Source: Deltaproteobacteria bacterium
Lineage (GTDB): Bacteria; Desulfobacterota; Anaeroferrophillalia; Anaeroferrophillales; Tharpellaceae
Assembly: GCA_030633185.1 (NCBI GenBank)
Contig: DAOVTG010000001.1
Coordinates: 1-61,868 of the forward strand
Reading direction: 5' to 3'
DNA length: 61,868 nucleotides
Shown here: one piece after another, positions 12,382 to 53,074 of the stretch
How positions within the stretch are numbered: the stretch's first letter is position 1
Layout: each line of letters begins with the position of its first letter
The notes under the pieces: model-generated
What the model saw: the letters and a program-made list of their open reading frames with translations, nothing else
What the model was told of the DNA's origin: nothing
Database searches by the model: none
Program-made: the position numbers and the translations under genes

Positions 12382-12399
12382 TTTTTGGAGAGGATTGTA

Positions 12400-13524
12400 A
12401 TGTTTTTACCTGAAGGACTTACTGCTGCCAGAATTCTGATTATCGATGATAATGAATTTAATGTTCAGCTCTTGGAAGCTGTGGTTACCGAGGCGGGTTA
12501 TAGCTCAGTGTTGAGTATTACCGATTCCCGGAAGGCCGAGGATATTTATCGGGCCTATCAACCGGATCTGGTGCTGCTTGATATCAGTATGCCTAACCTT
12601 GACGGTCATCAGGTGATGGAGCAATTCAAAAAAATCGAGAAATCTCCCTACCTTCCGGTTTTGGTTTTAACCGCCTTGCAAGATGATGAAACCCGGCTTA
12701 AAGCCCTGGCGAACGGAGCTCAGGATTTCCTGACCAAACCCTTTAACAGACTTGAAACCCTGACCCGAATAAAAAATATACTGACCGTCAGGCTCCTGCA
12801 CCGGCAGGTAAAAAAACAGAATGAGGAGCTTGAAATAAAGGTCAAAGAGAGAACTAAAGAGTTGCAGGAGACCCGGCTTGAGATTATCCGGCGTTTAGGC
12901 CGGGCTGCAGAATATAAAGATAATGAGACCGGTTTTCATATTATTCGGATGAGCAAGAGCTGCGCTCGCCTCGGTGAACTTGCCGGTTTAAGTGAGGCCG
13001 AGGTCGAGCTCGTTCTTAATACCAGTCCGATGCACGATATCGGTAAAATTGCGATTCCCGATATAATTCTTTTGAAACCGGGGGCGCTTGACCGTAAAGA
13101 GTGGGAGAGAATGAAACAACACCCTCTGACTGGCTACAGCTTACTTGAAGGTCACGACTCAGAACTGATGCTCTCAGCTCGTGAAATTGCGCTGACTCAT
13201 CACGAAAAATGGGATGGTAAAGGTTATCCTCAGAACTTAAAGGGGAGCGAGATTCCTTTCAACGGCCGCCTGGCCGGGATCGCCGATGTTTTCGACGCCT
13301 TGACTTCAAAAAGACCCTATAAAGATCCCTATCCGGTGAGCAAAGTGGTAGAGATTTTCAAATCGGAACGGGAGAAACACTTTGATCCCGAATTAACCGA
13401 TCTTTTCCTCCAGAATATTGATGATTTTGTCACCATAAAAGATACTTTTCCTGAAGTTGAAGCGGAGGTCGAAAACGGATATTTTCAATTAAGTGACAGG
13501 GATAAAAATGAAAAAAAAGAGTAA
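12400..13524 (+). CDS. Response regulator with HD-GYP c-di-GMP phosphodiesterase domain (RpfG-like)
   Basis: REC (ILIIDDNEFN, LLDISMPNLDG, TKP) followed by HDIGKIAIPD and HHEKWDGKGYPQ. Confidence 0.85.
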   Translation: MFLPEGLTAARILIIDDNEFNVQLLEAVVTEAGYSSVLSITDSRKAEDIYRAYQPDLVLLDISMPNLDGHQVMEQFKKIEKSPYLPVLVLTALQDDETRLKALANGAQDFLTKPFNRLETLTRIKNILTVRLLHRQVKKQNEELEIKVKERTKELQETRLEIIRRLGRAAEYKDNETGFHIIRMSKSCARLGELAGLSEAEVELVLNTSPMHDIGKIAIPDIILLKPGALDRKEWERMKQHPLTGYSLLEGHDSELMLSAREIALTHHEKWDGKGYPQNLKGSEIPFNGRLAGIADVFDALTSKRPYKDPYPVSKVVEIFKSEREKHFDPELTDLFLQNIDDFVTIKDTFPEVEAEVENGYFQLSDRDKNEKKE

Positions 13525-30046: not shown

Positions 30047-30059
30047 TGTTTTTTGCTCC

Positions 30060-30764: not shown

Positions 30765-30774
30765 ATAGTCCTCT

Positions 30775-31656: not shown

Positions 31657-31717
31657 ATATGCCTCTTTTTGGTGTCTGGTTTAGTATATAAAAATTTCGT
31701 AATTTTTTATGGTGGTT

Positions 31718-32116: not shown

Positions 32117-32134
32117 GTCAACTCCTGAGCGAAG

Positions 32135-34477
32135 TTATATCAGTTTATGGGTGTTGAGGATTAAAATCAGTCGTCCATTACCAAGGATTGAAACTCCGTT
32201 GAAAACATCAATATCTGCAAGCACAGGAGGTAAGGGTTTCATAACAATTTCCATGTTGCGAACAAATTTATCCACAATGATACCAAATTCGCTATCTTTG
32301 CTTCTGATAATCACCAGAAAAACCTCATCAAGCTCGTTGAGCTGTTGCCGTCTCCGCTGGCAATCTTTTCCTCCGGTTAACAGTGTGCTAACAAATGAGA
32401 CTGGAAGTACTTTATCACGGTAATGGAACAGCATATTTTCACCTGTACCACGAATTGAGGCCGGGTGAATTTTAATTGCCTCCACAACATTTTCAAATGG
32501 AAGCCCATAGTTGAGTCCGCAAATCTCAACTAGCAAAACCGTGCTAATGCCCATTGAGGCCGGAATTGTCAGGGTTAACAGTGAGCCTTTTCCCGGTTCG
32601 GAACTGACCTTTACATCCCCGTCAAGAGCGTCGATGGAGGAACGCACGACATCCATTCCCACGCCGCGACCGGAAAGATCTGTAGATTTGTCCATGGTAG
32701 AGAGCCCGGCTTTGAAGATAAGGGCAAGAATTTCCGGTTCATCCATACTCTCTACATCAATCCCGTCTTTTTTCGCCTTGGCCTTTAGTTTTTTCTGGTT
32801 AATACCAGCGCCGTCATCAATAATCCGAATAACAATATTACCGTTCTCCTGGCTGGCGGCCAGGGTAATAGTACCTTTCTCTGATTTGCCGGCGGCTCTG
32901 CGGACTTCGGGTGTTTCAATTCCATGATCGCAGGAGTTGCGAATAAGATGGATCATGGGGTCGGTAAGAGTGTCGGCCACTTTTTTATCAATTTCAGTCT
33001 CTTCACCCTGGAAAACAAGATCTATCTGTTTCTTCTTTTTTCTGGAAATATCACGAACAATACGGGTGAATTTTTGAAAAATAGTTTTAATCGGTACCAT
33101 CCGCAGATCCATGATGCCATGATGCATATCATTAACCAGCCGGGTAAAGTCGTGGAGGTTATCGCTTAATGCCTTCATCGCATCACCAGCAATTTTATCA
33201 TCAAGTCCGGCGAGCAGATACTCGTAAGAGTTCCTGCTTACCAACATCTCTCCAATCAGGTTCCCGAAGTTTTCAATCTTTGTTTCATCGACTTTCATAG
33301 TACGTATTTGATTGTTTTTTGAAAGAGCTTGCAAGTCTGCCGCTCCGGCTACTTCCATGATTTTTTGTTGTTGTAAAGCCCGGTCAATATCTGCGGGTTC
33401 AACTTTGCCCTGTTCCACCAGGATCTCTCCCAAAGCTTTCTGCTCTCCCAGCGCGGCATCCACATCTGCCCGGCTGATTTTGCCTTCTGCAACCAGTATC
33501 TCTCCAATTGGCTGTGGCCCTTTGACAAGGCCATCGGCAAAGTTAATAATCTCTTGCAAAGTTTCGAGAAAATCGGTTTCACTGATCTTTAGCATATCAT
33601 TTGCCAGATCAATAAGAAGGGCCAGGGTTGGTAATGAGATCTCCGCAAGAGCTGAAGATATATCGACCAAAGCCAGACTGATAATCTTTTGTTGCTCAGC
33701 GGATAAAGGTGAGATGTTGTTTTCAACAATGATGTCTCGTTGCCGGATAAGCGTTTCTATAAATGTTATCCTGACTTCGTACTCTTCCTTCGCCAGCAGG
33801 ACAAGACTTTCCTGGATCACGGGATCAACAAGCTCAGTTTGTACTCCTGAAATTTTAATTGATCGAAGTTTTTCTACGACCTCTGATTCAGGTTTTTTGC
33901 TGGCAAAAAGATCTTGCAAAGAGCTACCATAATTGACAATGGCATCAATGATTTTGTCAATCTCATGTCCGGTGGTCGAGAGATTACTGTTTTCCAGTTT
34001 CTCAATATCTTCATGGAACTCAGTCAAGGCAAGTTTGACACAAGAGTAGAAGATATGATCAAGCTTCAGCTCTTTGGATGATAAAAGTAAATCTTTTTCA
34101 TCTTGTTGATATGTGGCTTTAAACTGTTCAACAAGTTCAAGGTTGACTACCGGCGAATCACCAATGCTGGCTTTTTGGAGCATGTTTACAATGTAATCAT
34201 TACCTGACAGGGTTAAATCAATAATCTGTGAGGTAACGACAATTTTTTTATTGCGTAAAGCATCAAGCATCCCTTCAAGATGATGGGCAAAATCAGAGAC
34301 CGTTGAGAGGCCAAAAAAACCAGCTGTGCCTTTTACAGTGTGAATCCCTCGGAAAATGGCGTCAAGAATGGAGAGTTCCTCCGGGTTATTCTCAATGAGT
34401 AACAGGTCAGATGCAACTTTTTCTAAAATTTCATTTGATTCTTGAATAAATTCAAGTAATTCATTGTCAGGGTTCAT
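32135..34477 (-). CDS. cheA: CheA histidine kinase, second paralogue, with two tandem MshEN-like 24-25-aa repeats before the dimerisation domain
   Basis: P1 FRGIHTVKGTAGFFG; repeats PIGEILVAEGKISRADVDAALGEQ / ALGEILVEQGKVEPADIDRALQQQ; P4 MIHLIRNSCDHGIE...GRGVGMDVV; P5 CheW-like. Confidence 0.9.
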   Translation of the reverse strand: MNPDNELLEFIQESNEILEKVASDLLLIENNPEELSILDAIFRGIHTVKGTAGFFGLSTVSDFAHHLEGMLDALRNKKIVVTSQIIDLTLSGNDYIVNMLQKASIGDSPVVNLELVEQFKATYQQDEKDLLLSSKELKLDHIFYSCVKLALTEFHEDIEKLENSNLSTTGHEIDKIIDAIVNYGSSLQDLFASKKPESEVVEKLRSIKISGVQTELVDPVIQESLVLLAKEEYEVRITFIETLIRQRDIIVENNISPLSAEQQKIISLALVDISSALAEISLPTLALLIDLANDMLKISETDFLETLQEIINFADGLVKGPQPIGEILVAEGKISRADVDAALGEQKALGEILVEQGKVEPADIDRALQQQKIMEVAGAADLQALSKNNQIRTMKVDETKIENFGNLIGEMLVSRNSYEYLLAGLDDKIAGDAMKALSDNLHDFTRLVNDMHHGIMDLRMVPIKTIFQKFTRIVRDISRKKKKQIDLVFQGEETEIDKKVADTLTDPMIHLIRNSCDHGIETPEVRRAAGKSEKGTITLAASQENGNIVIRIIDDGAGINQKKLKAKAKKDGIDVESMDEPEILALIFKAGLSTMDKSTDLSGRGVGMDVVRSSIDALDGDVKVSSEPGKGSLLTLTIPASMGISTVLLVEICGLNYGLPFENVVEAIKIHPASIRGTGENMLFHYRDKVLPVSFVSTLLTGGKDCQRRRQQLNELDEVFLVIIRSKDSEFGIIVDKFVRNMEIVMKPLPPVLADIDVFNGVSILGNGRLILILNTHKLI

Positions 34478-34481
34478 ATTT

Positions 34482-36059
34482 TCATATCCGTTTTTGAATC
34501 TCTTCTTTCAGCATCTCTCGTTTTAGGGGTTTGTTTAAAAAACCATTTGCCCCGGCATCGTTGGCCAGCTCTTTTTGGGACTGTTCCGACTCGGTAGTGG
34601 CCATAATAATAGGTAGATCTGAATATTGCGGGCGCTTACGCACCTCTCTAATCAGTTCAATACCGTCCATGTTCGGCATATTCATGTCCGTGATCAAGAT
34701 ATCTATTTGAACCCCGGAATCAAGTATCTCTAACGCCTTCTTGCCATCTAAGGCAGTGGTGATCTGGAGCCCCATCTCCTTGGCCGCACCCTGATAGAAA
34801 AAAAGCAGCGCCTTGGAGTCATCAGCGACCAGCAGATGGGTATCAGAAAGGTTAGCAGCGCTCAACGATTGCAAACCTTTCAAGTCGGCGGCGGCCCGGG
34901 TTCCAACCAGCTCTTTCAAGATCTGACTAAAGAGTTCTGTGGCCTCCGGGTCGTTACTGTCGAGTAGACGCTCTATGAGGATTTCGCCTTGTTCTTTATC
35001 TCTGTAGACCAATTCCATAAGATTACTTGAGCGGGTATCGATCATGGTTTGGATGATTAGGCTGGCCTGAATCTCATTTTCATTAAGGCAGGTTTGGAGC
35101 AAATCCGCGATACGCTCATCGGCTTGTTGTTCAAGGCCGGTGATTACGGCCATAAGTAACAGGTCATCTGTCTGTTTTAGACCATCTATCAAAGTTACCA
35201 GACTGCGGGAAGCTGAAATTCTTCCCAGAGCTTCGTAGAGGGCAAACTTTAGATTTGGTTCAAGCTTAGTCCGGCGATAGAGTAGACGACAGGTAAGTCC
35301 GGCTCCTTTAACATCGCCAATCATGCCGATGAGGTTAGCCGCCAGGATACGTTCGTCTTTGTCGCCAGTGGCGAGACAGGATTCCAGAGCAGGCAAGCTG
35401 GTTGTGCCGATGGCCAATATCTGTTCATGACAAATCATCCGCAGGCCGGGATTAAGGTGATGAATCTGTTCAATCAGAAAAGCCAAGGAGTCATCATCTG
35501 GAAAATGGTTAAATTGAGCTAAGGCCAGGCCCGATTTTAGCGAGTCGCTGCCGGTTTTGACTTCAGCCCTAACCACCTCCATCATCATATCTCGGCCAGA
35601 AATATTTTGCATACGTCCGACATGCGCCATAACCGTACCGCTGATGGTAAGATCATCATGGTCGAGATAGGGGAGCAGGATGGTGAAAATTTCGGCTTCA
35701 CTCAACATTGTCAGAGAGCGGATAATTGCAGTTAAAATCTCGATATCATCGCGATTATCAGCCAGCATTTTTTTTAAGTGTGAAAGTGAATCTTCGATTC
35801 CGGAGGCTCCGGCCATTTTTATCGAAAGCAACCGCACTCGTCGACTCTTGGCCGAAAGTCCGCTCACGATCTCTTTTTGCTGACCAGGCAAGAGCACTAA
35901 TAGAGCGTGATAGACCATCTTGTCTACCGCTGGATCGGCCAGGGGCTCTTCATAAATTCGCAGTAGTCCCAGCAGAGCCGTAATATCTGCGGTTTCCTGA
36001 ATCGTGGCGAGCAGGTTGATCTGCTCGATCATATCTTTATCTTTAAAATCAGTTAACAT
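34482..36059 (-). CDS. HEAT-repeat protein with C-terminal receiver domain
   Basis: About 400 aa of alpha-solenoid/HEAT-like repeats, then REC (LLVADDSKALL...ILITDMNMPNMDG...NKP). Confidence 0.75.
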   Translation of the reverse strand: MLTDFKDKDMIEQINLLATIQETADITALLGLLRIYEEPLADPAVDKMVYHALLVLLPGQQKEIVSGLSAKSRRVRLLSIKMAGASGIEDSLSHLKKMLADNRDDIEILTAIIRSLTMLSEAEIFTILLPYLDHDDLTISGTVMAHVGRMQNISGRDMMMEVVRAEVKTGSDSLKSGLALAQFNHFPDDDSLAFLIEQIHHLNPGLRMICHEQILAIGTTSLPALESCLATGDKDERILAANLIGMIGDVKGAGLTCRLLYRRTKLEPNLKFALYEALGRISASRSLVTLIDGLKQTDDLLLMAVITGLEQQADERIADLLQTCLNENEIQASLIIQTMIDTRSSNLMELVYRDKEQGEILIERLLDSNDPEATELFSQILKELVGTRAAADLKGLQSLSAANLSDTHLLVADDSKALLFFYQGAAKEMGLQITTALDGKKALEILDSGVQIDILITDMNMPNMDGIELIREVRKRPQYSDLPIIMATTESEQSQKELANDAGANGFLNKPLKREMLKEEIQKRI

Positions 36060-36083
36060 TAAAAGTCACAGAGGATGGCTAAG

Positions 36084-39029
36084 TTACAATTTGGTTGTGT
36101 TTAATAATAAGATCAAGCGACCATCACCCATAATTGAAGCCCCGCTGATCTCTTCTATATGAGCCAGGGTCTGGGGTAGGGGTTTGACTGCTATTTCCAT
36201 GTTGCGGACAAAACGATCGACAATGAAACCGATGGTGGCGTTACCGATTTTAATGATTACCAGAGAAATTTCTTGAGCCGGATTCAGACAATCTCGATCC
36301 CGGTGTTTGTCCCCCGGTTGGGCTAAGCGATTTTCCAAAAAATCAACTTCGATGACCTGGCCCCGGTAATGAAAGATGAGTCCATCCCCTGCCTTACGCA
36401 GTTCGCTGGGCATAATTTTAATGGTTTCTAAGACATGCTCGAAAGGTAGACCGTAAGACTGGCCGCCTGCTTCAATCAGCAGAATCACAATGATTCCCAT
36501 AGTCATAGGGATGGTCATGGTAAGTTTCGTGCCCGTACCCTCCTCCGAACTCAGTTGGATATGACCGTTCAGCGAATCAATCGTCGAGCGCACGACATCC
36601 ATGCCCACTCCGCGACCGGAGATATTGGTGGCCTGATCCATCGTTGAGAGACCGGCATGAAAGATAAGACCAAGAACTGCGGCTTCATCCATGCCGTCAA
36701 CATCAATACCGGAGTTCATGGCTTTAGCTACAAGTTTCTCTTTATTGATTCCGGCCCCATCATCACTGATCTGGATTATAAGGTTACTACCGAGCTGACT
36801 TGCTGAAAGAGTTACCGTGCCTTTTTTCGCTTTGCCTGTCGCCTCGCGCACTGTCGGAGACTCTATACCATGATCGCAGGCGTTACGGATCAAGTGAATT
36901 AAAGGTTCGGATAGGGTGTCGGCCACCTTTTTGTCGACCTCGGTATCCTCGCCTTTAAGGATGAGTTGGATATCTTTTTTCTGTTTACGGGCGACGTCAC
37001 GAACCACCCGGGTATATTTTTGAAAAATCCCTCTGATCGGGATCATCCGCATGGCCATGATACCATGGTGCATATTTTCTACGAGCCGGGTAAAAAGATG
37101 TAGGTTTTCTTTTAAGGACTTGGTTTGAGCGGCAAGTTCCTGAGCACCATTTATATTCTCCAGGTTATTAATTAAATACTCATAGGAGTTACGTGCCACC
37201 AGAAGCTCACCAACGAGATTGGAGAACTCCTCGATTTTGAGTTCATCAACCCGCATGGTGTGGGTTTCTTTCTCAATCGCCCTGGGCTTCATGGTCTGGG
37301 CAACCTCCATCAGAACCTGTTTTTTCAGGGCTTGATTAACCTCGGCCTTTGCCAGCTTGCCTTGATCAACCAGGATTTCACCGACGGGTTTCTGTTGGGC
37401 CAGGGCTTGAGAGAGATCCTTTTTGCTGACCTTGCCTTGTTCCACAAGGATTTCTCCCAATGGCTTTTGCTGTTCCAGGGCTTCGCTCAAATCCTGGCCG
37501 CTGATCTTACCGTCGGCTACCAGAATTTCGCCCACCGGTTTGGGTTCGCCGGTCAAACCGTCGATGAAGCTGACAATTTCACCAATGGCAGTTACCAGAG
37601 AGGATTCATCTCTATCGAGTGAGTCATGGGCTCGGAGCAGTAGTTTTTTCATGGTTGGTAGATCCACAAAACTACCGGCCCGCTCAAGACCACTCAAGGA
37701 GCGGGTTATGATCTCTCGATCCTCAGAGGCCAGAGGCGAGTTGCTATGCCTGGCCAAAATATCTTTATGCTGCATAACCTGATCGAGAAAAACCTCACGC
37801 ATATCTTCAGGCAGGTTAGCTAGTTCATCCCCGCCGGCAGGGGTTTCATTTGCAGTGCTGTCACGCTCTCCGGCCATAGCCGCTAATTCCTTATAGCCCG
37901 CCGGAAACTCATGTACGGTTTCTCCCTTGGACAATGAGTTAATAAGAGATTTCAGGCCATCCACACCGACCAATAGGAGGTCTATAATCTCAGCATTTGG
38001 TTTAAGCTCGTTTTTGCGGAGACGTACCAGCAAACTTTCCAGAACATGGCCGAAACGGGTGGTTATTTCAAGCTGGAGGTAATCAGCATCGCCCTTGATG
38101 GTATGAGCTCCGCGAAAGAGCTCATCCAGAGCATCTTGGCAACCACTTTTTTCGTAATTGATAACGGCCCGTTCCATGACTTCAATATGCTCTACGGCAT
38201 CGCTTAAAAAGAGGGCAATATCCTCTTCGTCAATTACCGGCAGCAGCATATCGGTTTCGCTATCATCAGTTTCGGCATCGCTGATGTTCGCAGCTTCCAT
38301 TCCCCCTTTACTAACCGCTATCAGGGTCGAGGATAGATGTTCGAGTTCGGTTTGGAGTTCGGTCAGGGGCAGGTTTTCATGGACATCCAACTGTTTGAGC
38401 CGGGCCAGAGTTTTTTCGAGTTTGGCCCCGGCTGAAACTATGGCGCCCAGATCATAGATCTGGGCGCCAGCCACGATAATATGAATTTCGCTATAAAGAT
38501 CATCAAGCAGATCCTGGTTTTGCGAATCGCTCTCAAGCTGGTCGAGGAACTTTCGGGCGGAGACCAAGGCGTCACTGGCCTCACTTATGAACTCTGTCGG
38601 GACGGCAGTTTTTTCACTCTCCTCTTTTTGGGGATTGGGAAAAGAGTTGCTACTTGGTGTTTTCTGGTAGGCGTCACGAAATTGAGTCACTAATTCATCG
38701 TCGCCGACCGGTTCCTCGTCATTTTCAAAAGCCTTAAGCATCAGGCTGATGCGATCAATTCCGGCCAAAATCAGATCTGCAATTTCAGGTTCCAGTTCGA
38801 CCTGATCTTTGCGCAAAGCATCGAGCAGACCTTCAAGGTGATGAGCAAAGCCGGAGACCGCATTTACCTCGAAAGTTCCGGCATTACCCTTGATGGTATG
38901 GATAGAACGAAAGATGGAGTGCATAACATCTTTGTCATCCGGGTTGGCCTCGGCCTGGAGGATATCATCGCTGGCTTTTTCCAGCAACTCTCGCGCCTCC
39001 TCTAAAAATTCTTTTTTAAAATCGTCCAT
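36084..39029 (-). CDS. cheA: CheA histidine kinase, first paralogue, with two Hpt domains and three tandem MshEN-like repeats
   Basis: Hpt1 FRSIHTIKGNAGTF and Hpt2 FRGAHTIKGDADYL; three 25-aa repeats P[VL]GEILVxxGKxxxxxxxxALxxQ; P4 LIHLIRNACDHGIE...GRGVGMDVV; P5. The ATG at 39029 (MDDFKKEF) is 2 nt after the cheY stop; the tracked TTG at 39038 is the alternative. Confidence 0.9.
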   Translation of the reverse strand: MDDFKKEFLEEARELLEKASDDILQAEANPDDKDVMHSIFRSIHTIKGNAGTFEVNAVSGFAHHLEGLLDALRKDQVELEPEIADLILAGIDRISLMLKAFENDEEPVGDDELVTQFRDAYQKTPSSNSFPNPQKEESEKTAVPTEFISEASDALVSARKFLDQLESDSQNQDLLDDLYSEIHIIVAGAQIYDLGAIVSAGAKLEKTLARLKQLDVHENLPLTELQTELEHLSSTLIAVSKGGMEAANISDAETDDSETDMLLPVIDEEDIALFLSDAVEHIEVMERAVINYEKSGCQDALDELFRGAHTIKGDADYLQLEITTRFGHVLESLLVRLRKNELKPNAEIIDLLLVGVDGLKSLINSLSKGETVHEFPAGYKELAAMAGERDSTANETPAGGDELANLPEDMREVFLDQVMQHKDILARHSNSPLASEDREIITRSLSGLERAGSFVDLPTMKKLLLRAHDSLDRDESSLVTAIGEIVSFIDGLTGEPKPVGEILVADGKISGQDLSEALEQQKPLGEILVEQGKVSKKDLSQALAQQKPVGEILVDQGKLAKAEVNQALKKQVLMEVAQTMKPRAIEKETHTMRVDELKIEEFSNLVGELLVARNSYEYLINNLENINGAQELAAQTKSLKENLHLFTRLVENMHHGIMAMRMIPIRGIFQKYTRVVRDVARKQKKDIQLILKGEDTEVDKKVADTLSEPLIHLIRNACDHGIESPTVREATGKAKKGTVTLSASQLGSNLIIQISDDGAGINKEKLVAKAMNSGIDVDGMDEAAVLGLIFHAGLSTMDQATNISGRGVGMDVVRSTIDSLNGHIQLSSEEGTGTKLTMTIPMTMGIIVILLIEAGGQSYGLPFEHVLETIKIMPSELRKAGDGLIFHYRGQVIEVDFLENRLAQPGDKHRDRDCLNPAQEISLVIIKIGNATIGFIVDRFVRNMEIAVKPLPQTLAHIEEISGASIMGDGRLILLLNTTKL

Positions 39030-39030
39030 C

Positions 39031-39387
39031 TCAACCAACCAGCATCTTTACATGTAAAACCAGGGTATTAGGTTTAACCGGCTTGACGATATAAAGATTG
39101 GCTCCGGCCAGGATAGCTTTCTCCTTGTTGGCGGCCTCGGCCTGGGTCGAGATCATGATGATTGGCGTCTCATTATCACTTTGTCGATATTTCTCGACAA
39201 AAACAATACCATCCATATTGGGCATATTGATATCCGAGAGGATAAGATCGTACTTATTGCTCAGGGCTTTTTCCAGAGCTTCGACCCCGTCCATGGCTCC
39301 ATCCGCTTTAAAACCGGCAGCTTTAAGCAAATTTGTATGAAAATTCCTGACAAAACGGGAATCGTCAACTACGAGTACTTTTTTCAT
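39031..39387 (-). CDS. cheY: Chemotaxis response regulator CheY
   Basis: 118 aa, VLVVDDSRFVR, LILSDINMPNMDG, VKP. Confidence 0.9.
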   Translation of the reverse strand: MKKVLVVDDSRFVRNFHTNLLKAAGFKADGAMDGVEALEKALSNKYDLILSDINMPNMDGIVFVEKYRQSDNETPIIMISTQAEAANKEKAILAGANLYIVKPVKPNTLVLHVKMLVG

Positions 39388-39405
39388 AATAAATAGCTCC
39401 GCACA

Positions 39406-39442
39406 GGGTAGAAAGGGTGAAGTGTGAAGGGTGAAGGGTGAA
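39406..39442. repeat. Tandem heptamer array (GGGTGAA-like, about 5 units) in the cheR-cheY spacer
   Basis: GGGTAGAA AGGGTGAA GTGTGAA GGGTGAA GGGTGAA on the plus strand (TTCACCC units on the coding strand), ending 19 nt upstream of the cheY ATG. Confidence 0.6.
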
Positions 39443-39480
39443 AAAATATCCTTTTGTCAAGTTATTGCTGAACTCGCAAG

Positions 39481-40317
39481 TCACTCTTTATAATAGACCA
39501 TGTGGTTGGCAGATTTTTTTATTTTGAAAGCCGGATTAATCCTGGAGGGTGATTCGCTGGAGCCCAGAAAAATAAAACCGCCATTATTTAGAGCCAGATA
39601 ATAGTGATCGACCACCTTTTTTCGGGAAATATTGTCAAAATAGATCAGGACATTACGGCAAAAAATGAAGTCAAAATCACGGCAGGGCCGAAGCTGTTTC
39701 CGATCACTGAGATTGATATGTTTAAACGTCACCATATCTTTGATCTCATCCGTGACTTTGAAGATCCCGGCCTTTTGGGTGAAATAGCGAGTTAGATATT
39801 CTTGGGGTACATCTTTGACACTGCGTCGCATATAGGCACCCTGTTGGGCTTTTTCGAGAATATTCAGATCAATGTCTGAAGCCATAATCTCGACATCCCA
39901 ACGTTGGAGATTCTCTAACATCTCCTTGACGATGATCGCTATAGTGTAGGGTTCCTCGCCACTTGAGCAACCGGCCGACCAGATGCGCAGGGTTTGGTCT
40001 CCAGCTCTCTTTTTTTGTTCGACAATCTTGTCCAGACCAAATTCGGCAAATGAGAGTAGTTGGTTAAAGTCACGGAAGAAATAGGTCTCATTTATCGTCA
40101 GTAAATTGAGGAGTTCCTGGAGTTCATGACCTTGATGATCGTGAAACTTGAGGTGGCGCAGATACTCATCGGTATTGGTTAGATCTAAAGCCACAACTCT
40201 TTTTTCCAGCCGTTTGGCCACATAATAGATCTTTTTTTGTTCGAAACGAATGCCGGCTTTTTGGTAAATCAGGTCGGCAAGTCGTTCAAATTCATCAACA
40301 TCAAGTTCAAATCGCAT
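39481..40317 (-). CDS. cheR: Chemotaxis protein methyltransferase CheR
   Basis: N-terminal helical CheR_N and the SAM-binding core (RIWSAGCSSGEEPYTIA, IFCRNVLIYF). Confidence 0.9.
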   Translation of the reverse strand: MRFELDVDEFERLADLIYQKAGIRFEQKKIYYVAKRLEKRVVALDLTNTDEYLRHLKFHDHQGHELQELLNLLTINETYFFRDFNQLLSFAEFGLDKIVEQKKRAGDQTLRIWSAGCSSGEEPYTIAIIVKEMLENLQRWDVEIMASDIDLNILEKAQQGAYMRRSVKDVPQEYLTRYFTQKAGIFKVTDEIKDMVTFKHINLSDRKQLRPCRDFDFIFCRNVLIYFDNISRKKVVDHYYLALNNGGFIFLGSSESPSRINPAFKIKKSANHMVYYKE

Positions 40318-40337
40318 AGCTTAAAGCTCCACTATAT

Positions 40338-41405
40338 TTACAGTAATTCCTTACAAAGTTCTCGTAAATCTTCATCTTTACTATCTTCCATGATCTTTAG
40401 AATCTGGTCTCGTTCGCCGGCAGCAGCTAAGAGACGAACACCCGGCAGGGCCATGGCCGGATCGTTGTTGGAGATTAAGAGTTGGCCCAATTCATTTAAG
40501 AGTGCAATTTTTAGTTTACTTCCGGCTCCCGATTGGCCCAGGAGTAAGCTCTCTACAGCTTGATAACGGGCCTCGTTTCCGGCTTCCGGGTTACGGATAA
40601 TATCAATGAGCAATTTGAGAATTGTCTCTTCGGCCAGAAGGTCGGGAAAACGTTTTAAGGCATCAGTTAACATATTGCTTACCTCCTCACCATAGAGATC
40701 AAGATCGGTGATTGAGGTGGCGAGCCGGATGATGGCTTCTCGTTCTCCGGCTTTGGCGGTAAGCTCAGTTAGCGGGGCCAGGTAGATGGGGTCAATTTCA
40801 GCACTACCGCCCTCCGGGATCAAGGTTGTGAGAATCTTAGTGATGGCATTGGCATCGGCTACCATCGTCATGGTTTCGAGGATGGCCGCCCGCAGCATCG
40901 GCTCATCACTCTCTTTAAAGAGGGTGACCATGTCGGCGACACCTTCGCTATCGGCCATACAGCCCAGATACTCGACCGCAGTGATCTGGACATTGGGCGA
41001 TTCGTCAAAGAGCCCGGCTCGTATCACCAGCAGGGTTTCATCCGAGCCGATCAAATACATTGCATCAAGCACCAGCTTGCGTACCTCCCGGTCACTGTGA
41101 TCAAGTTTGGAGGTCAGAAAAGCTACTGCATCTTCACCCCCTTCACCGAATATAATCACTGCCCCATTGCGTAAAAAGGCGTCAGTCGACATGAAAAATT
41201 CAAAAATCTGATCATGTACTTGAGTGATGTCAAGTCTCTGCAAGCCTGAAATAATGGCATTTTTCACCGCCACCGATTCCTCTTTGGCCAATTGATAGAC
41301 CAGCGGTACCGCCGCCTCAGCCCGGCCCAGATCAGCCAGATCTTCGGCCGCATAGAGTCGGGTAGCCTCATCCGGGCTTTTAAAATCTTTAATTAACTCT
41401 TCCAT
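40338..41405 (-). CDS. HEAT-repeat protein (PBS-lyase-HEAT-like)
   Basis: Repeated ~30-aa helical units (DEATRLYAAEDLADLG, DAFLRNGAVIIFGEGG, DREVRKLVLDAM, SPNVQITAVEYLG, EPMLRAAILETM). Confidence 0.7.
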   Translation of the reverse strand: MEELIKDFKSPDEATRLYAAEDLADLGRAEAAVPLVYQLAKEESVAVKNAIISGLQRLDITQVHDQIFEFFMSTDAFLRNGAVIIFGEGGEDAVAFLTSKLDHSDREVRKLVLDAMYLIGSDETLLVIRAGLFDESPNVQITAVEYLGCMADSEGVADMVTLFKESDEPMLRAAILETMTMVADANAITKILTTLIPEGGSAEIDPIYLAPLTELTAKAGEREAIIRLATSITDLDLYGEEVSNMLTDALKRFPDLLAEETILKLLIDIIRNPEAGNEARYQAVESLLLGQSGAGSKLKIALLNELGQLLISNNDPAMALPGVRLLAAAGERDQILKIMEDSKDEDLRELCKELL

Positions 41406-41427
41406 TAAAACCTCCTAGTAGAACCTT

Positions 41428-42495
41428 CTAGCCTACTGCACTAATAATCTCATCAGCGATATCCCAACTTGGTGCCACCACGTCAGCTCCGCCTCGTTCG
41501 ATAGCCTCTTTGGGCATGCCGAAGACGATGGCAGTTTCGTCGGATTCGGCGATCGTGCGACCGCCAAGTTCTCTGATTCGAACCATGGCATCGGCACCAT
41601 CATCACCCATGCCGGTCATCAGAACGCCGACGGTATCATCTCCAAATATCTCCATAACCGAGTCCATCATCACCTCTACCGATGGGACAAAGAGATGTTT
41701 GGGACGTACCGGAGTCCGGATAACTAGTTTGTGGCCCGGTCTTCTAAACAGGGTCAGGTGACGTCCGCCAGCAGCTAGATAGATGGTGCCGGGTTTTAGC
41801 TCCATACCGGTCTCGGCATGAACACAGTTCATGGGACAGGCTTGATCTAAACGTTGAGCAAAAGAGGCGGTAAAAGCGGCCGGCATATGTTGAACCATGA
41901 TAATCGCGGCATTAAGATCGGCCGGAATAAAAGGCAATACGTCAAAAATCGTCTTTGGGCCGCCAGTTGATATACCAATAACTATAGCTTTAAAACCTAA
42001 TCCTCTGGTTTTGCCTGCGACCGGTTTGCGGCTTGGCCTGAAGCGTTGTCCGGGGCTACGTTTAGGATCGGTTCGGTGGGGGCGTAATTTGTCCAGGGTG
42101 CCCTGGCTGGTGGCCGCTTTAAGTTTGGCAATAAGTTCTCGGGCGACCTCCTCCATATTAACCGAGACGGTGCCGCCGGGTTTGGCGATATAGTCAAAGG
42201 CACCCAGAGCCATTGACTCAAAAGTGGCCTCAGCTCCCTCCTCGGTCAGGGAAGATACCATAAGAACCGGAGCAATCTTCTCTTCAACAATGATCTGCAT
42301 GGCGCTGATACCATCCAGACCCGGCATATTGATATCCATGGTAATGACATCGGGCCGCAGCTCGCGGGCCTTGGCCACGGCGTCATTACCATCTCGGGCC
42401 GCAGAGATAACTTTGAAACCGCGATCCGATTCAATTATTTTCTTTAAACTCCGCCGCATCAGGGCGGAGTCATCACAAATTAGTACCTTTTTCAT
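41428..42495 (-). CDS. cheB: Chemotaxis protein-glutamate methylesterase CheB (REC plus CheB_methylest)
   Basis: REC (VLICDDSALMRR, VITMDINMPGLDG) and esterase core (IGISTGGP, MVQHMP, MTGMGDDGA). Confidence 0.9.
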   Translation of the reverse strand: MKKVLICDDSALMRRSLKKIIESDRGFKVISAARDGNDAVAKARELRPDVITMDINMPGLDGISAMQIIVEEKIAPVLMVSSLTEEGAEATFESMALGAFDYIAKPGGTVSVNMEEVARELIAKLKAATSQGTLDKLRPHRTDPKRSPGQRFRPSRKPVAGKTRGLGFKAIVIGISTGGPKTIFDVLPFIPADLNAAIIMVQHMPAAFTASFAQRLDQACPMNCVHAETGMELKPGTIYLAAGGRHLTLFRRPGHKLVIRTPVRPKHLFVPSVEVMMDSVMEIFGDDTVGVLMTGMGDDGADAMVRIRELGGRTIAESDETAIVFGMPKEAIERGGADVVAPSWDIADEIISAVG

Positions 42496-42529
42496 TTGAG
42501 TGTCTCATAACGTATAATATATACTATAA

Positions 42530-42538
42530 ATTATAGCA
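42530..42538 (-). promoter_or_regulatory. Candidate extended -10 promoter (TGCTATAAT) upstream of cheB
   Basis: The coding-strand sequence TTTGCTATAATTTATAG lies about 35 nt upstream of the cheB ATG. No good -35 was seen. Confidence 0.3.
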
Positions 42539-42551
42539 AATGGTGTGAATA

Positions 42552-42718
42552 TCGCTTTGCCCTGCTTCGCAAGGGGACACCGCTCAGATCGGCGATGGGC
42601 TTTCAGCCCGCGCCTGGAGCAATGTCCCCGTTCTGGGGCAGGTCGGGGACATTGCTCCAAGGCAGGGCGCCAGCCCAAGACGGTCTGAGCGGTGTCCCCT
42701 TTTAAGAGGGCGAAGCGA
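42552..42718. repeat. 167-nt GC-rich nested palindrome (long imperfect hairpin) between the triple-CheW gene and cheB
   Basis: Outer arms TCGCTTTGCCCT / AGGGCGAAGCGA; GGGGACACCGCTCAGA (42573-42588) / TCTGAGCGGTGTCCCC (42684-42699); inner GGAGCAATGTCCCC (42616-42629) / GGGGACATTGCTCC (42645-42658). Confidence 0.75.
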
Positions 42719-42756
42719 ATTTCGATGATTTTCGATGTAACTTAAGCCCCCCCCCT

Positions 42757-44715
42757 CTATTCATCTATCTTCATCTTTTTAACTGGTTTTTTTTGGGGTG
42801 CGGTTTTGGCCCGGGGTTTGACCTTTTTCTTCTCCATCGCCGCTATCTCTTTTTTATCATTGGTACTGAGTATCTCATTAATATCAAGCAGGAGAACCAT
42901 GCGTTTGCCTTGGTTGAGTTGACAAACTCCTTCTATAAAGCGGTTTTCGGTGTCACCGGTGACAATGCCTGGAGTCGGGGCGATATCGGCCTTGGGCAGG
43001 CGTAGAACTTCATTGACCTTGTCGACCCGCAGTCCGGTGCGACGGCCTTCAATATCAACGATGATAATTCGGGTGGAGTCATCTTGGTCACGAGATTCGA
43101 GACCAAACAAAGTTCGGATATTAAGCACCGGGATGACATTGCCGCGCAGGTTGGTGACCCCGTCAATAAAGGCCGGAGATTTTGGTACCTGAGTGATCTC
43201 TTCTAAGCGATTAATCTCTTGGACCTGCATGATCCGGACACCATACTCCTCTTTGTCAACAATAAAGGTGACCAGTTGTTCTTCATCCATATCTTTTTGG
43301 GCCAGGCTGATCTCATTTTCAGTTTCGGCATCAGCAGTTTTTTTTACAGCTTCACTCATCTTGCCAAGCTCTTCACTCTCCTCATGGCTGATCAATGATG
43401 ACTCTTCCATGATCATAATCAAGCGTTTGCCATTGTCGAGTTTGGCGACCCCTTTCAACTCTTTTTTGGCTGAGGAAGCAGCCCAGGGGGGGGCATCGAT
43501 AGTCGATTTTGGGATTCGCAAAACCTCGTTTACCGAGTCGACAATGAAACCGACATGAATATCACCCGTCTCCACTACCAGAATGCGCTGGAACTCATTG
43601 ATATTTTTTGCCAGCTTATTCTTGATTGCGATAAATTCTGAGAGGAGAATTTTTTCCAGAGGGGTAATATGCTCTTCGAGATAGAGGACGGCTTCGTCCT
43701 GAGAATGGCTGCGGAGTTTCAGGGCCTCGGCCCCAAACTCATGAAAATTGATGTGGGGGATTCTGATATCATTTATCAGGTCACCGACATCGCCAGAGCG
43801 ATCCTTGGTCAACCATTGACCTAAGGCACATTTAGTCGGATCCAGAGCCCCGTTAAACGGGGCGTTGCTCTGCAAAGACTGTTTAAGATCCTTGAGCCAT
43901 TGTTCATGGATAACCATTATCTCATTGATCTCGTTATGGAACTGTTCTATCAGGGAGGTGTTGCCCAACATGGTCCGCAGATCGAGAATCGGCAGGAGTT
44001 GGTTGCGAATGGTGAGTAGCCCTCGAACATAGTTTGCGGCATTGGGTACTTCGGTAATCTCCCCCACCCGAAGGATCTCCCGCACCCGGTTTATATCGAA
44101 AGCGTACTCCTCGTCTGCGACCTTAAAGGATATAAGTTGTTCTTCATCGATGTTTTTTTCAACCGCATTTATTGCCGTTTTCCCAGCCTGTAGAGCCGCT
44201 TGCTTTTGATCTGACTTAACCTCTTTCGTTTGAACCTGCACAACTTCATCGAGATCCAGGATGAGAATGAGACGAGCCCCATCGTTCATCTTGACTACGC
44301 CGGAGAGGAACTCTCGATCTACCCCTTTGCAAACTGCCGGCGGTTCTTCCATCTGCTCTTTTTTGGTATGCAGTACCTCGCGGACATCATCGACAATCAG
44401 GCCGGTGGCTGTGGTACCAGTTTCAATTACTAATAGTCGGGTGCTGTCATCGGCCTCTTTATGTTCCAGACCAAAACGTTGCCGGCTATTTATGGCGGGC
44501 AACACCGAACCTCGCAAGTTACAGATCCCGGCGACATAGTCGGGGCTCTGGGGAATCGGGGTAATATCCGGTACCCGGACAATCTCCCGCACCGTATTGA
44601 TATCTACGCCAAACTCCTCATCAGCCAGGGCAAAAACCACGAGTTGGCCTTCGGCTGAATCGAGAGATTGGGCGGTTTCCATATTTTCAGACATAATTAA
44701 CTCCGTTTTAATCAT
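42757..44715 (-). CDS. Triple CheW-domain scaffold with a CZB (chemoreceptor zinc-binding) domain inserted in the middle CheW domain
   Basis: Three CheW-like units (QLVVFALADEEFGVDINTVREI, QLISFKVADEEYAFDINRVREI, QLVTFIVDKEEYGVRIMQVQEI). CZB signature H270xxW...C296ALGQW...H321INFH325. An alternative start is the ATG at 44694 (GGAG RBS). Confidence 0.85.
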   Translation of the reverse strand: MIKTELIMSENMETAQSLDSAEGQLVVFALADEEFGVDINTVREIVRVPDITPIPQSPDYVAGICNLRGSVLPAINSRQRFGLEHKEADDSTRLLVIETGTTATGLIVDDVREVLHTKKEQMEEPPAVCKGVDREFLSGVVKMNDGARLILILDLDEVVQVQTKEVKSDQKQAALQAGKTAINAVEKNIDEEQLISFKVADEEYAFDINRVREILRVGEITEVPNAANYVRGLLTIRNQLLPILDLRTMLGNTSLIEQFHNEINEIMVIHEQWLKDLKQSLQSNAPFNGALDPTKCALGQWLTKDRSGDVGDLINDIRIPHINFHEFGAEALKLRSHSQDEAVLYLEEHITPLEKILLSEFIAIKNKLAKNINEFQRILVVETGDIHVGFIVDSVNEVLRIPKSTIDAPPWAASSAKKELKGVAKLDNGKRLIMIMEESSLISHEESEELGKMSEAVKKTADAETENEISLAQKDMDEEQLVTFIVDKEEYGVRIMQVQEINRLEEITQVPKSPAFIDGVTNLRGNVIPVLNIRTLFGLESRDQDDSTRIIIVDIEGRRTGLRVDKVNEVLRLPKADIAPTPGIVTGDTENRFIEGVCQLNQGKRMVLLLDINEILSTNDKKEIAAMEKKKVKPRAKTAPQKKPVKKMKIDE

Positions 44716-44718
44716 TCT

Positions 44719-50185: not shown

Positions 50186-51804
50186 TGAACGATAATTTTC
50201 CTTGTAAAACTTTGCTGATTTTAAGTGATCATCCTGAAAATATGGAGCTTTTAGGAGATGCTTTAAAGGATGAATATTGCATTGTTAAAGAGGAACTCGA
50301 CCGTAATGGTCTAAAGAATCCTTCCCCCTTGGCGAAGGCGGATTTAATTCTTTTAGACACCAATTTGATGGGCCGTAATGGTTTAGATCTTCACTGCTGG
50401 TTGCAGGAAGTTCCGGGAATAGAGCAGGTTCCGGTTATGATTCTCTCGGCTCTTAATCACGAGGAGGATATTGTTGCGGGTTTTGCGGCCGGGGCGGTTG
50501 ATTACATAGCCAAGCCTTATAAGCTTTCAATTATGAGAGCCCGGGTCAAAACTCAGTTTAAACTTTTGCACGCCTTAGAGATTGCCGAGCAGGCCAATCA
50601 GGCAAAAAGCGAATTTTTGGCCAATATGAGTCATGAAATACGGACTCCGCTCAATGCCATAATCGGTATGAACCATTGTGCTCTGGAGTCGTCGCCTCCG
50701 GACAATGTCAGGAGTTTTTTAGAAAATGTAAAAATCTCGGCTGATTCGCTTCTCGCGGTTGTCAATGATGTTCTCGATTTTTCCAAGATAGAAGCGGGTC
50801 GGCTTGAGTTGTTAGAGAGGCCGTTTGATTTGGCCTGCTTAATAGAAGAACTTCTGGAAACATACTCGGTTGGCGCGAAAGAGAGAGGCAACCAGATTGT
50901 CCAGGAGGTCGACAGCCACATCTTTCAGGCATTGATCGGCGATGACCACAGATTGCGCCAGGTTCTGGTTAATCTGATCAGTAATGCGGTAAAATTTACT
51001 GAAAACGGTAAAATTATTCTTGGGGTTTTTATCAAACAGGAATCCGAGACTGAGATTCTACTGCAATTTAAAGTCTCTGATACCGGTATAGGTATACCTC
51101 TTGAGGTTCAGAACAGTATATTCAAGAGCTTTACTCAGGCTGATTCGACGATCACCAGGCGCTACGGTGGTACTGGTCTGGGGTTGGCAATTTGTCAACA
51201 GTTGGTTCAGTTGATGGGAGGTAGTATCGGGCTTGAAAGTCGTTCCGGGGTTGGCAGTACCTTCTCTTTTACGGCTCAATTTAAGAAAGCTCTCCCGGAA
51301 ACGTGCCCGGCTGAAGTTGAAGGATCTCTTGACGAGTCGGTGTTTCTAACTCCCTTACGCATCCTTGTGGTTGAAGATAACCAGTTCAATCGGGAATTGG
51401 TCCAGTTTCTTCTTGAAAAAGAGGGGCACCAGGTAACGACGGTTGAAGATGGGCTTAAAGCGTTGGAAAGCCTGATGCTGGATAGTTTTGACGCTGTTTT
51501 AATGGATGTCCAGATGCCGGAGATGGATGGAATTACGGCCACGAAATTTATCCGGGATTGTGAAAAAAGTAGTCTCGATGATCGTTCTCCTCATCAGAAA
51601 ATTGGGGCTCGGCTTACGACAAAAATTAAAGGGGGTCGCATCCCGGTTATCGCGATGACCGCCCATGCCATGTCCGGTGATCGTGATAAATGTTTAGAGG
51701 CCGGTATGGATGACTATATTACCAAACCTTACCAGCCGGATGAGATTTTCAAAGTACTCAGACGAGTTTTAGCATGCGAGGTACAAAATGGGAAATCTGA
51801 TTGA
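50185..51804 (+). CDS. Hybrid histidine kinase (REC-HisKA-HATPase_c-REC)
   Basis: N-terminal REC ([13 protein letters not shown]...AKP), H-box [15 protein letters not shown]-boxes, C-terminal REC ([11 protein letters not shown]...[11 protein letters not shown]...TKP). Confidence 0.85.
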
Positions 51805-53074
51805 TGATGGCCATGCGGTCATGAAAAAAATCCTTTTGGTTGAAGATAACCGTTTCTTCGGAGCGATGTTGATCCGGAAATTTGCCAAAGAGAGTGATCT
51901 GGAGATTGTCTGGGCGCAAAGTTTGAGCGAAAGCCGCGATATTTTGGCTTCCGGTGAGCATGTTTTTTTTGCGGCGATTCTCGATTTCAATCTTCCTGAT
52001 GCTCCTCGGGGTGAGGTTATTGTAGAGGTTATAGCTCATAGTATACCGGTTCTTGTCTTTACTGCCAGCAGTGATGCCGTAGTTCGGGATAAGGTTTGGT
52101 CTTACAATGTTGTCGACTATGTTTTCAAAGATGATGCTCAAAGTCTTGAGTATCTAATCTATTTGATCCGTCGTCTTGAGAAGAACCAACAAACCAAGGT
52201 TATGGTGGTTGATGATTCATCTTTTTTCCGCAAGGTTTTGGTCGATCTTTTAGAGACTCATCAATTCCAAGTTCTATCTGCCTCGGACGGAAAGGCGGCT
52301 CTTGCCTTGTTTGAAGAGCACCCTGATATTAAGTTGGTACTGACCGATTTTGAGATGCCTGAATTGACTGGTCTTGAGTTGACCCGGAAACTACGGCAAC
52401 GCTATCGTCGTGACGAATTGGTGATTATCGGTATTTCTGCGGCCGGAGACCAGATGGTGGCGGCCAGTTTTATAAAAAACGGGGCTAATGATTTTATTGT
52501 CAAGCAGACCTTTATGACCGAAGAGTTCTACAGTCGGATTACGCAAAATATTGAGAATGTTGAACGCGCCCAGATGATCCTTGAGATGTCGATCAAAGAT
52601 CATCTGACCGGACTCTATAATCGTCGTTATCTCTTTGAGGCCGGGATTCAGTTTTTTGACCGGGCGCGGCGGCAGAAAACGACGATTGTTTGTGCTATGC
52701 TTGACATCGACCATTTCAAAAGGGTCAACGACAATTATGGTCACGATGTCGGCGATTTGGTTTTGCGTCGGTTAGGGGAGGTTTTGCAGGATAATTTTCG
52801 CACCACCGATATCGTTGCCCGCTTCGGCGGGGAAGAGTTTTGTGTTCTGGCAGTTGATCTTGATGAGAGTGGTGCGGTTAAACTTTTTGAGAGGTTGCGA
52901 GAGAAAGTTAAGCACCAAACTTTTACAACCGCAAAGGGTGAAAACCTTTCCGTTACCATTAGCATCGGAATTTGCACGGAACTCAAAGACAATCTGGAGC
53001 AGATGATCAAAACGGCGGATGAACGACTCTATGAAGCAAAAGAGGGTGGTCGTAACCGGGTTGTGGCGGAATGA
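51788..53074 (+). CDS. PleD-like response regulator diguanylate cyclase (REC-REC-GGDEF)
   Basis: Two receiver domains and a GGDEF domain with GGEEF active site and [16 protein letters not shown] before the ATG at 51788. Confidence 0.85.

Follow-up and report, generated by a model that had tools for sequence, protein, structure and literature searches.

A three-unit MshEN_N-type module ahead of the dimerization domain of a double-Hpt CheA kinase, a candidate c-di-GMP receptor

Three tandem repeats in CheA1

The window analyzed here, a 61,868-nucleotide stretch of DNA from a Deltaproteobacteria bacterium of the Desulfobacterota (GenBank assembly GCA_030633185.1, contig DAOVTG010000001.1, positions 1 to 61,868 of the forward strand), encodes a chemotaxis kinase, CheA paralogue 1 (CheA1), in which three short tandem repeats stand ahead of the dimerization domain. 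The original prediction had likened these repeats to the MshEN motif, which in MshE binds cyclic di-GMP (c-di-GMP), and we followed this up computationally. Translation of the minus strand at 37317-37538 gives PVGEILVADGKISGQDLSEALEQQ-K-PLGEILVEQGKVSKKDLSQALAQQ-K-PVGEILVDQGKLAKAEVNQALKKQ, exactly as first noted; the prediction had named no strand, and translation of the plus strand is nonsense. The three MshEN_N-type motifs occupy, in this order, residues 501-524 (37467..37538), 526-549 (37392..37463) and 551-574 (37317..37388), and are separated by Lys525 (37464..37466) and Lys550 (37389..37391), so that both the triplication and the one-residue spacing, against five residues in MshE, were borne out. 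The repeat segment thus spans residues 501-574 of the 984-residue CheA1 and ends 18 residues before the H-kinase_dim domain.

CheA1 is a 984-amino-acid open reading frame (ORF) on the minus strand when read from a TTG codon at 39038 (36084..39038). This TTG overlaps the stop codon of the upstream cheY gene (TGA at 39033-39031; minus strand, 39027-39038), and from the sequence the ATG at 39029, giving 981 amino acids that begin with MDDFKKEF, is the more likely start. The NCBI gene call, of 967 amino acids, starts 17 codons later and would cut off part of the first Hpt helix.

The protein matched the NCBIfam CheA models with an E value of 1e-122 and has the Hpt domain with an HxxKG motif, the P3, P4 (HATPase_c) and P5 (CheW-like) domains and the che operon setting of a CheA. 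Pfam identified two Hpt (P1) domains (PF01627), at residues 9-97 (38748..39014; E 4.2e-15) and 275-362 (37953..38216; E 2.1e-13), each with a canonical HTIKG motif, which contains the phospho-acceptor H47 in the first and H312 in the second. The P3 dimerization domain (H-kinase_dim, PF02895) follows at residues 593-663 (37050..37262), the P4 kinase domain (PF02518) at 711-846 (36501..36908) and the P5 domain (PF01584) at 852-984 (36087..36485), all on the minus strand. This layout confirmed a double-Hpt CheA with the repeats between the second Hpt and the dimerization domain. The repeats had also been placed where P2 normally sits. They do lie ahead of P3, and the Pfam scan of CheA1 gave no match to the CheY-binding P2 domain (PF07194), but about 110 residues of helical sequence without a Pfam match (385-497) separate them from the second Hpt domain. 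Residues 141-270 and 401-500, scanned on their own, were likewise without a Pfam match. The connector between motif 3 and the dimerization domain, VLMEVAQTMKPRAIEKETHT (residues 575-592; 37263..37316, minus strand), is conserved: in an alignment of 24 CheA modules, Gln24 is followed by 'x[LI]M', and P3 begins with 'TMRVDE'. As a separate observation, residues 386-500 (37539-37883) and 141-270 (38229-38618; both minus strand) are helical and resemble degenerate Hpt-like bundles, with 'HIIVAGA' and 'SLSGLERAGSF' in the place of HxxKG.

The three CheA1 units have Pro at position 1, Val, Leu and Val at position 2, Gly at 3, Leu-Val at 6-7, Gly at 10, Lys at 11, Ile, Val and Leu at 12, Leu, Leu and Val at 17, Leu at 21 and Gln at 24. 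The motif had been said to fit apart from its leading Arg. Arg1 is indeed replaced by Pro in all three units, always with Lys before the Pro, but position 11, hydrophobic in the consensus (Ile, Phe, Leu or Val), also deviates, being Lys in all three.

The units share only 57-65% identity at the DNA level and Tandem Repeats Finder (TRF) reported no tandem repeat in the DNA encoding them, indicating an old repeat that has been kept at the protein level; these two results ruled out a recent duplication or an assembly artefact as its origin. Three units are kept in 11 distinct CheA orthologues with identities down to ~51%. Gly3, Leu6, Gly10, Ala20 and Gln24 are present in every repeat of all 11; none of the units is therefore decaying. 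Lys or Arg forms the spacer in 11/11. As to which unit is the extra one, scores against motifs I and II of the two-motif orthologues did not discriminate, and the position of the MAFFT gap differed between two alignments of CheA modules.

Homology to the c-di-GMP-binding subdomain of MshEN

The NCBIfam model NF053729 ('cyclic di-GMP-binding domain-containing protein, MshE-related'; 53 positions, curated cutoff 38 bits) matched CheA1 with 69.1 bits for the full protein and 84.9 bits (E 2.4e-24) for the segment. In a phmmer search of PDB sequences with the segment, Thermus thermophilus PilF was the best match (E 1.1e-12), and entries titled 'c-di-GMP binding domain of PilF', MshE (5HTL) and PilB proteins were also matched. 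A profile built from 24 CheA modules (A1) matched PilF (E 4.1e-23), PilB (8e-8) and MshE (5HTL; 1.5e-6) in the PDB, and its alignment on MshE covers chain residues 5-61, which are the 53-residue c-di-GMP-binding domain. Searched against a set of 5.8 billion proteins, A1 retrieved proteins annotated with PF05157, with E values down to 1e-25; this search gave only small MshEN proteins and no CheAs, and the same kind of search with a 78-amino-acid segment gave nothing, a single candidate having words in common with the query. Profile-profile alignment by hhalign between A1 and PF05157-annotated MshEN proteins gave 98.7% probability (E 3e-16), and its sole indel is a 4-residue gap at the inter-motif spacer. 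On these comparisons, the CheA1 units are homologous to the MshEN_N motif that binds c-di-GMP, as the original prediction had proposed.

That prediction had named Pfam T2SSE_N/MshEN (PF05157) as the model by which to check the repeats. A Pfam scan of CheA1 gave no PF05157 match even at E<=10, and this model proved unsuitable for the purpose. The PF05157 alignment on canonical small MshEN proteins covers residues 61-140, behind both motifs, and a canonical two-motif N-subdomain on its own has no PF05157 match and gives the same weak DUF4388 and FumaraseC_C matches as CheA1. Since PF05157 models only the C-subdomain, its absence is uninformative, and Pfam-based receptor censuses miss modules that consist of the N-subdomain only, in CheAs, zinc-ribbon proteins and GT2 proteins. 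By its alignments, the CheA1 module is such an N-subdomain, without the alpha/beta subdomain MshEN_C. The sub-threshold Pfam identities of the segment (DUF4388/PATAN, FumaraseC_C and others) were rejected, as canonical MshEN_N segments give the same matches.

The roles of the motif residues have been defined for MshE (Wang et al. 2016, PMC5013675). Guanine is contacted by Arg1, through stacking, and by the backbone NH groups of Gly3 and residue 4, at O6/N7. Leu2 shares a hydrophobic platform with Leu17 and Leu21 from the partner motif, Gly10 is the turn residue, Gln24 contacts ribose and phosphate, and the core consists of residues 6, 7, 11 and 12. All three CheA1 units have Gly3, the hydrophobic residues at 2, 17 and 21, the Gly10 turn and Gln24, and these residues are invariant or conservatively replaced across 11 three-motif and 96 two-motif CheA modules. 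The 24-residue tandem motif and these positions are thus common to CheA1 and Vibrio cholerae MshE (5HTL), and the helix-turn-helix of each MshE motif is also predicted for CheA1. By contrast, MshE has two motifs joined by a 5-residue spacer, with Arg at position 1 and Ile or Phe at position 11, whereas CheA1 has three motifs joined by single Lys residues, with Pro at 1 and Lys at 11; and MshE is a secretion ATPase with MshEN_C, whereas the CheA1 module, known here from sequence, lies in a kinase and has no MshEN_C.

A further close counterpart is the GSPII-C domain of T. thermophilus PilF (Neissner et al. 2024, PMC11731258; cryo-EM 6F8L), PilF being the best sequence match of CheA1 in the PDB. 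GSPII-C also has three consecutive motifs; in motif II (KPLGEILVELG) position 1 is Pro (P335), and in motifs I and III position 11 is Lys. It differs in its 4-6-residue spacers, in the C-terminal subdomain that follows the motifs, in Arg1 of motifs I and III and in its host protein, which is a type IV pilus ATPase and not a kinase. The affinity of GSPII-C for c-di-GMP resembles that of MshEN (dissociation constant, KD = 500 nM), and PilF GSPII-B, which lacks both Arg residues (K167/L196), binds c-di-GMP at 6 nM (PMC11731258). Because GSPII-C with P335 and GSPII-B with K167/L196 bind, Arg1 does not strictly define the motif; as far as the alignment goes, both CheA1 deviations, Pro1 and Lys11, have a precedent in the proven binder GSPII-C. 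An isolated MshEN_N without its C-subdomain binds c-di-GMP at 0.35 µM.

Distribution and gene neighborhood of the compact module

We compared CheA1 with 120 homologues. Three units with 1-residue spacers are present in the six closest (51-99% identity), of which one is annotated 'Candidatus Desulfofervidaceae'. After these come ~20 double-Hpt CheAs, found in Desulfobacter latus, Desulfamplus, Thermodesulfovibrionales and elsewhere, which have two units and a 1-residue spacer, typically in the pattern 'RLGEILV...Q-K-P[LIV]GE...KKQ'. Most of the ~720-amino-acid proteobacterial CheAs (Shewanella, Ideonella, Comamonadaceae) carry two units 6-23 residues apart, and representatives of these long-spacer CheAs scored 27.7 and 36.6 bits on NF053729, both below the cutoff of 38.

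An exhaustive HMMER search with a 78-amino-acid segment against 1.84 billion representatives yielded 1373 proteins at E<=1e-3, and spacers were measured in the best 150 of these. The commonest spacer had 5 residues (199 junctions). One-residue spacers occurred at 17 junctions in 14 proteins, all of them CheAs or CheA fragments whose arrays sit just upstream of H-kinase_dim; GT2/NfrB-like and other proteins had arrays of up to 12 motifs, and zinc-ribbon proteins had 2-residue spacers. Each architecture seems to have a spacer length of its own. On the side, we noted 10-12 motif copies in GT2/NfrB-like and ~1160-amino-acid proteins, and 11 copies in a 394-amino-acid protein in which the spacers alternate between 5 and 4 residues.

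When 185,579 species-representative genomes were searched for the junction pattern QK[PK][ILV]G[EKQ][ILM]L[VIM][ED], 429 loci were confirmed, of which 80 were kept. The CheA P3-P5 core was matched by 73 of these 80 ORFs. Represented among the kept loci are Desulfobacterota, Nitrospirota (including Ca. Nitrospira defluvii), Thermodesulfobacterium, Deferribacterota, Nitrospinota, Leptospiraceae and other Spirochaetota, Syntrophomonas, Acidobacteriota, Actinomycetota, Zixibacteria and SAR324. Among these loci, a three-unit CheA was found in only four species representatives (L001-L004), all Desulfobacterota-type metagenome-assembled genomes (MAGs). The survey of the architecture that the original prediction had proposed places the compact, 1-residue-spacer module in CheAs of many phyla and the three-unit CheA in a small Desulfobacterota clade. 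Gly3 is present in both motifs of all 96 distinct two-unit modules, Gln24 in 95 and the spacer Lys in 94, and the near-invariant Lys-Pro junction is a signature of the compact variant. Throughout, the 1-residue-spacer form occurred in a CheA, a CheA fragment or a CheA-like P2/P3 piece, and always just upstream of a P3-type dimerization helix. Such P2/P3 pieces are encoded by ~275-amino-acid ORFs in an Ignavibacteriales, a 'Deltaproteobacteria' and a Clostridiales MAG (L044, about 6001-6303; L050; L061). In these, a P2-like domain is followed by three motifs, which have Lys or Arg as their first residue and single-Lys spacers, and by a P3-like helix, while P1, P4 and P5 are lacking. Each may be a piece of a split CheA, and the three-unit compact array thus also occurs independently of CheA1 and its orthologues.

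In the window, CheA1 lies within a 20-kb minus-strand chemosensory cluster (27079-46701), which encodes, in order, a methyl-accepting chemotaxis protein (MCP), a protein with four CheW domains and a chemoreceptor zinc-binding (CZB) domain, CheB, a HEAT-repeat protein, CheR, CheY, CheA1, a HEAT-receiver (REC) protein, CheA2, a REC protein, a CheW-REC protein, a HATPase-only kinase, a stand-alone Hpt protein, a REC protein and CheA3. The CheY-like receiver gene directly upstream of CheA1 (39031..39387, minus strand; Pfam Response_reg), which overlaps or abuts it, likely encodes its phosphotransfer partner. A CheY homologue adjoins 73 of the 80 related CheAs, and the order HEAT-CheR-CheY-CheA is kept in all four species representatives with a three-unit CheA. 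CheA2 (32135..34477, minus strand; 780 amino acids, single Hpt) carries a two-motif module with a 1-residue spacer, found by a regular-expression scan, PIGEILVAEGKISRADVDAALGEQ-K-ALGEILVEQGKVEPADIDRALQQQ (33365..33511, minus strand), which scored 47 bits on NF053729 (residues 323-371; cutoff 38). CheA3 (27079-29181) showed neither an MshEN_N-type module nor a Pfam H-kinase_dim match.

The cluster is very large, with three CheAs, two HEAT-repeat proteins (one of them REC-fused) and several single REC proteins. Its 652-amino-acid protein with four CheW domains and a CZB domain (42757-44715, minus strand) is an unusual scaffold, whose gene is flanked by those of CheB and the MCP (44719-46701, with two MCPsignal stretches). 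A truncated Hsp70/DnaK-like gene (46755-48251) lies directly upstream of the cluster.

The original prediction had also pointed to c-di-GMP enzymes in the window, and both proved intact: a REC-REC-GGDEF diguanylate cyclase (51788..53074, plus strand) with a GGEEF motif and an RxxD I-site, and a REC-HD-GYP phosphodiesterase (12385..13524, plus strand) with its HD and GYP motifs. Both genes are on the strand opposite to CheA1, 13-24 kb away and outside the che operon. Judged by their motifs, they show that the organism uses c-di-GMP, with synthesis and turnover, and nothing more.

Proposed c-di-GMP input and its alternatives

We think it somewhat probable, from its sequence, that the CheA1 segment is a c-di-GMP receptor module, a compact MshEN_N lying directly N-terminal to the P3 dimerization helix. 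In each 24-residue unit, a Gly-Lys turn would link a short helix (x-h-G-E-I-L-V) to a longer one (xxD-h-xxA-L-xxQ), and a single extended c-di-GMP molecule would be clamped by two units, in the manner of MshE and PilF. Guanine O6/N7 would be bound by the free backbone NH groups of Gly3 and Glu4, residue 2 of one unit and residues 17 and 21 of its partner would form the hydrophobic platform, and Gln24 would contact ribose and phosphate. The Lys-Pro junction would replace the 5-residue spacer and the leading Arg, its Pro stopping the preceding helix and starting the next, and its Lys may take over the role of the Arg. The third unit could be held in reserve or offer another partner for pairing, as in PilF GSPII-C, or provide extra sites in the CheA dimer. 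From the course of the last motif helix, which runs toward P3, we infer that ligand binding would make the tether that joins the P3/P4 core to the two Hpt (P1) domains, both of which hang from the module, stiffer or give it another orientation, and would thereby alter the ease with which P1 gets to the ATP-bound P4 or to CheY. Kinase output would then be tuned by cellular c-di-GMP as well as by chemoreceptor input. While the analysis shows homology, position and the conservation of the contact residues, it is by inference that we propose binding, its stoichiometry and the direction of its effect on the kinase.

Structure prediction agreed with this scheme at the level of the single unit. An AlphaFold2 (AF2) model of residues 497-582, with canonical MshEN_N sequences added to the alignment (model 2), had a predicted local distance difference test score (pLDDT) of 81.4 and a predicted TM score (pTM) of 0.43 and showed six helices, with a short-helix/turn/long-helix pattern occurring three times. 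In this model, the secondary structure of the module agrees with that of MshEN_N, and the last motif helix (68-85 of 86 residues) extends ~10 residues past Gln24 toward P3. Foldseek ranked 5htl_A (MshE with c-di-GMP) first for this model, at a non-significant level (E 2.4, TM 0.31, root-mean-square deviation 11 Å). Thus, the helix-turn-helix of each unit was supported, but the bundle fold was neither confirmed nor ruled out.

Several observations weigh against a c-di-GMP receptor. The four-helix-bundle packing was not reproduced in the AF2 models (pTM 0.40 and 0.43), and a 1-residue spacer is not known to permit such a bundle; the short linker may force a different packing of the units. The other model (model 1), of residues 488-600 from 24 sequences, had a pLDDT of 57.6 and a pTM of 0.40, and Foldseek found no meaningful match for it. 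The CheA1 units fail the relaxed search pattern of Wang et al. 2016 at position 11 alone, and a change at that position, I19R (I19 of MshE), is among those listed for the non-binder XpsE. PilF GSPII-A did not bind c-di-GMP even with consensus motifs restored, its site being occluded by an extended, capped helix alpha1 and by inter-subdomain contacts (PMC12002112). Consensus motifs are thus insufficient for binding, and Pro1 should prevent a helix extension like that of GSPII-A at the N-terminus of the CheA module. In the open-access literature, we found no paper in which c-di-GMP binding by a CheA MshEN_N module had been tested. Finally, a GGDEF gene lies within ±6 kb of the related CheA in only 5 of the 80 genomes and an HD-GYP gene in 2, so that the gene context, intact enzymes notwithstanding, has no conserved linkage to CheA and carries little weight; we rejected gene neighborhood as support for c-di-GMP input.

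These observations bear differently on the other readings of the segment. It is possible, if doubtful, that the segment descends from MshEN_N but has no nucleotide binding and serves as a rigid helical spacer or a docking pad between the Hpt domains and P3, with CheY, a HEAT-repeat partner or another CheA docking on it, much as in PilF GSPII-A or XpsE. These two close relatives fail to bind, and GSPII-A has been proposed to be a 'landing pad' (PMC12002112). The shortened spacer and Lys11 are deviations, the AF2 models lack the four-helix bundle, HEAT-repeat proteins are conserved neighbors, and P2, the usual CheY-docking domain, was undetected in CheA1, which leaves a docking role vacant. However, other CheAs have both a P2-like domain and the module, so the module is not simply a substitute for P2, and more than 100 diverged modules keep the ligand-contacting Gly3, Gln24 and hydrophobic residues 2, 17 and 21, beyond the core positions, whereas the known non-binders have lost several of these residues. 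That the segment is merely a generic low-complexity or coiled helical linker, or resembles MshEN_N by chance and has no specific function, would fit the weak, unrelated Pfam matches (DUF4388, FumaraseC_C), but a canonical MshEN_N segment yields the same matches, the curated-model, profile-PDB and profile-profile matches are highly significant, and the register and the invariant Gly and Gln are conserved across phyla. The hidden Markov model (HMM), hhalign, profile and conservation results effectively rule this reading out, and we give it next to no credence.

The two remaining readings keep a ligand and change either its identity or its place. It is quite improbable that the module binds another cyclic dinucleotide, such as 3'3'-cGAMP, or a different ligand, with the compact spacing retuning its specificity. 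A results section of Wang et al. 2016 is titled 'MshEN can also bind cGAMP' (PMC5013675), and the Lys-Pro junction and Lys11 are systematic, family-wide features near the predicted site; yet no change is seen in the guanine-recognizing elements, namely the Gly3 and residue-4 amides and the Leu platform, and the window holds GGDEF and HD-GYP genes, with no cGAMP synthase noticed there. Unlikely, though less so, is a reading in which adjacent units are too tightly linked to pair within one chain. The Lys-Pro array with its 25-residue period would then be a distinct, largely CheA-specific receptor in which c-di-GMP is clamped between two CheA protomers or by alternative registers of the three units. 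If true, c-di-GMP would be a reversible cross-link directly above the P3 dimer that gates trans-autophosphorylation, with graded or cooperative occupancy of up to three ligands per dimer. Kinase control by this mechanism would be new, and c-di-GMP would feed into chemotaxis directly and independently of the array, in Desulfobacterota, Nitrospirota, Deferribacterota, Spirochaetota and other phyla. We continue to favor a c-di-GMP receptor module in which paired units clamp the ligand.

The original prediction had suggested that this CheA architecture might be undescribed. In fact, CheA-MshEN_N proteins, including the CheA of Aeromonas veronii, have already been catalogued, by bioinformatics only (Wang et al. 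2016, PMC5013675), and the core idea of a c-di-GMP module in CheA is no surprise to specialists aware of that catalogue. Those CheAs have the module in the same place, between the P1/P2 region and H-kinase_dim, but differ from CheA1 in having one Hpt domain, a P2 domain and two motifs with 6-23-residue spacers and 'G-A/S/T-h' turns, whereas CheA1 has two Hpt domains, no detectable P2 and three motifs with 1-residue spacers. Given the failure of the relaxed pattern at position 11, compact units may have been missed in the 2016 census. What appears to be unreported so far is the Lys-Pro variant with a 25-residue period, found almost only in CheA and in many phyla, its triplication in a small Desulfobacterota clade, and a second CheA in the same cluster with the two-motif form; as far as we can tell, the blindness of PF05157 to the binding subdomain is also unreported.

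Chemotaxis and c-di-GMP signaling are the two main systems by which bacteria decide whether to swim or settle, and the known links between them run through adaptors, namely PilZ proteins whose targets are the motor, CheR, CheX or receptors. Described routes from c-di-GMP into chemotaxis include the PilZ-chemoreceptor Cbp1 (PMC6454048), MapZ-CheR1 (PMC6370697) and PlzC-CheX (PMC12799141), and a route into a histidine kinase is known for the hybrid kinase ShkA (PMC6969517). As CheA1 is proposed to do, they let the level of the second messenger modulate chemotactic or two-component output. The same holds for CckA, a further example of c-di-GMP acting on a kinase. All of these use PilZ adaptors, or sites on pseudo-receiver or catalytic domains, and none has an MshEN_N inside a CheA, whereas in CheA1 the messenger would act on the central kinase itself. 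Cultured carriers of the compact variant include Thermodesulfobacterium hydrogeniphilum, Desulfobacter latus, Deferribacter abyssi and Syntrophomonas wolfei, and the variant is also present in the complete genome of 'Candidatus Nitrospira defluvii'. Two-unit and three-unit kinases side by side in one gene cluster, as in the window, are a natural comparison. A CheA with a receptor module of its own, as sequence-based prediction suggested in 2016, would bring c-di-GMP to the central kinase of chemotaxis, and such a direct link between the second messenger and the kinase is a clean, testable hypothesis.

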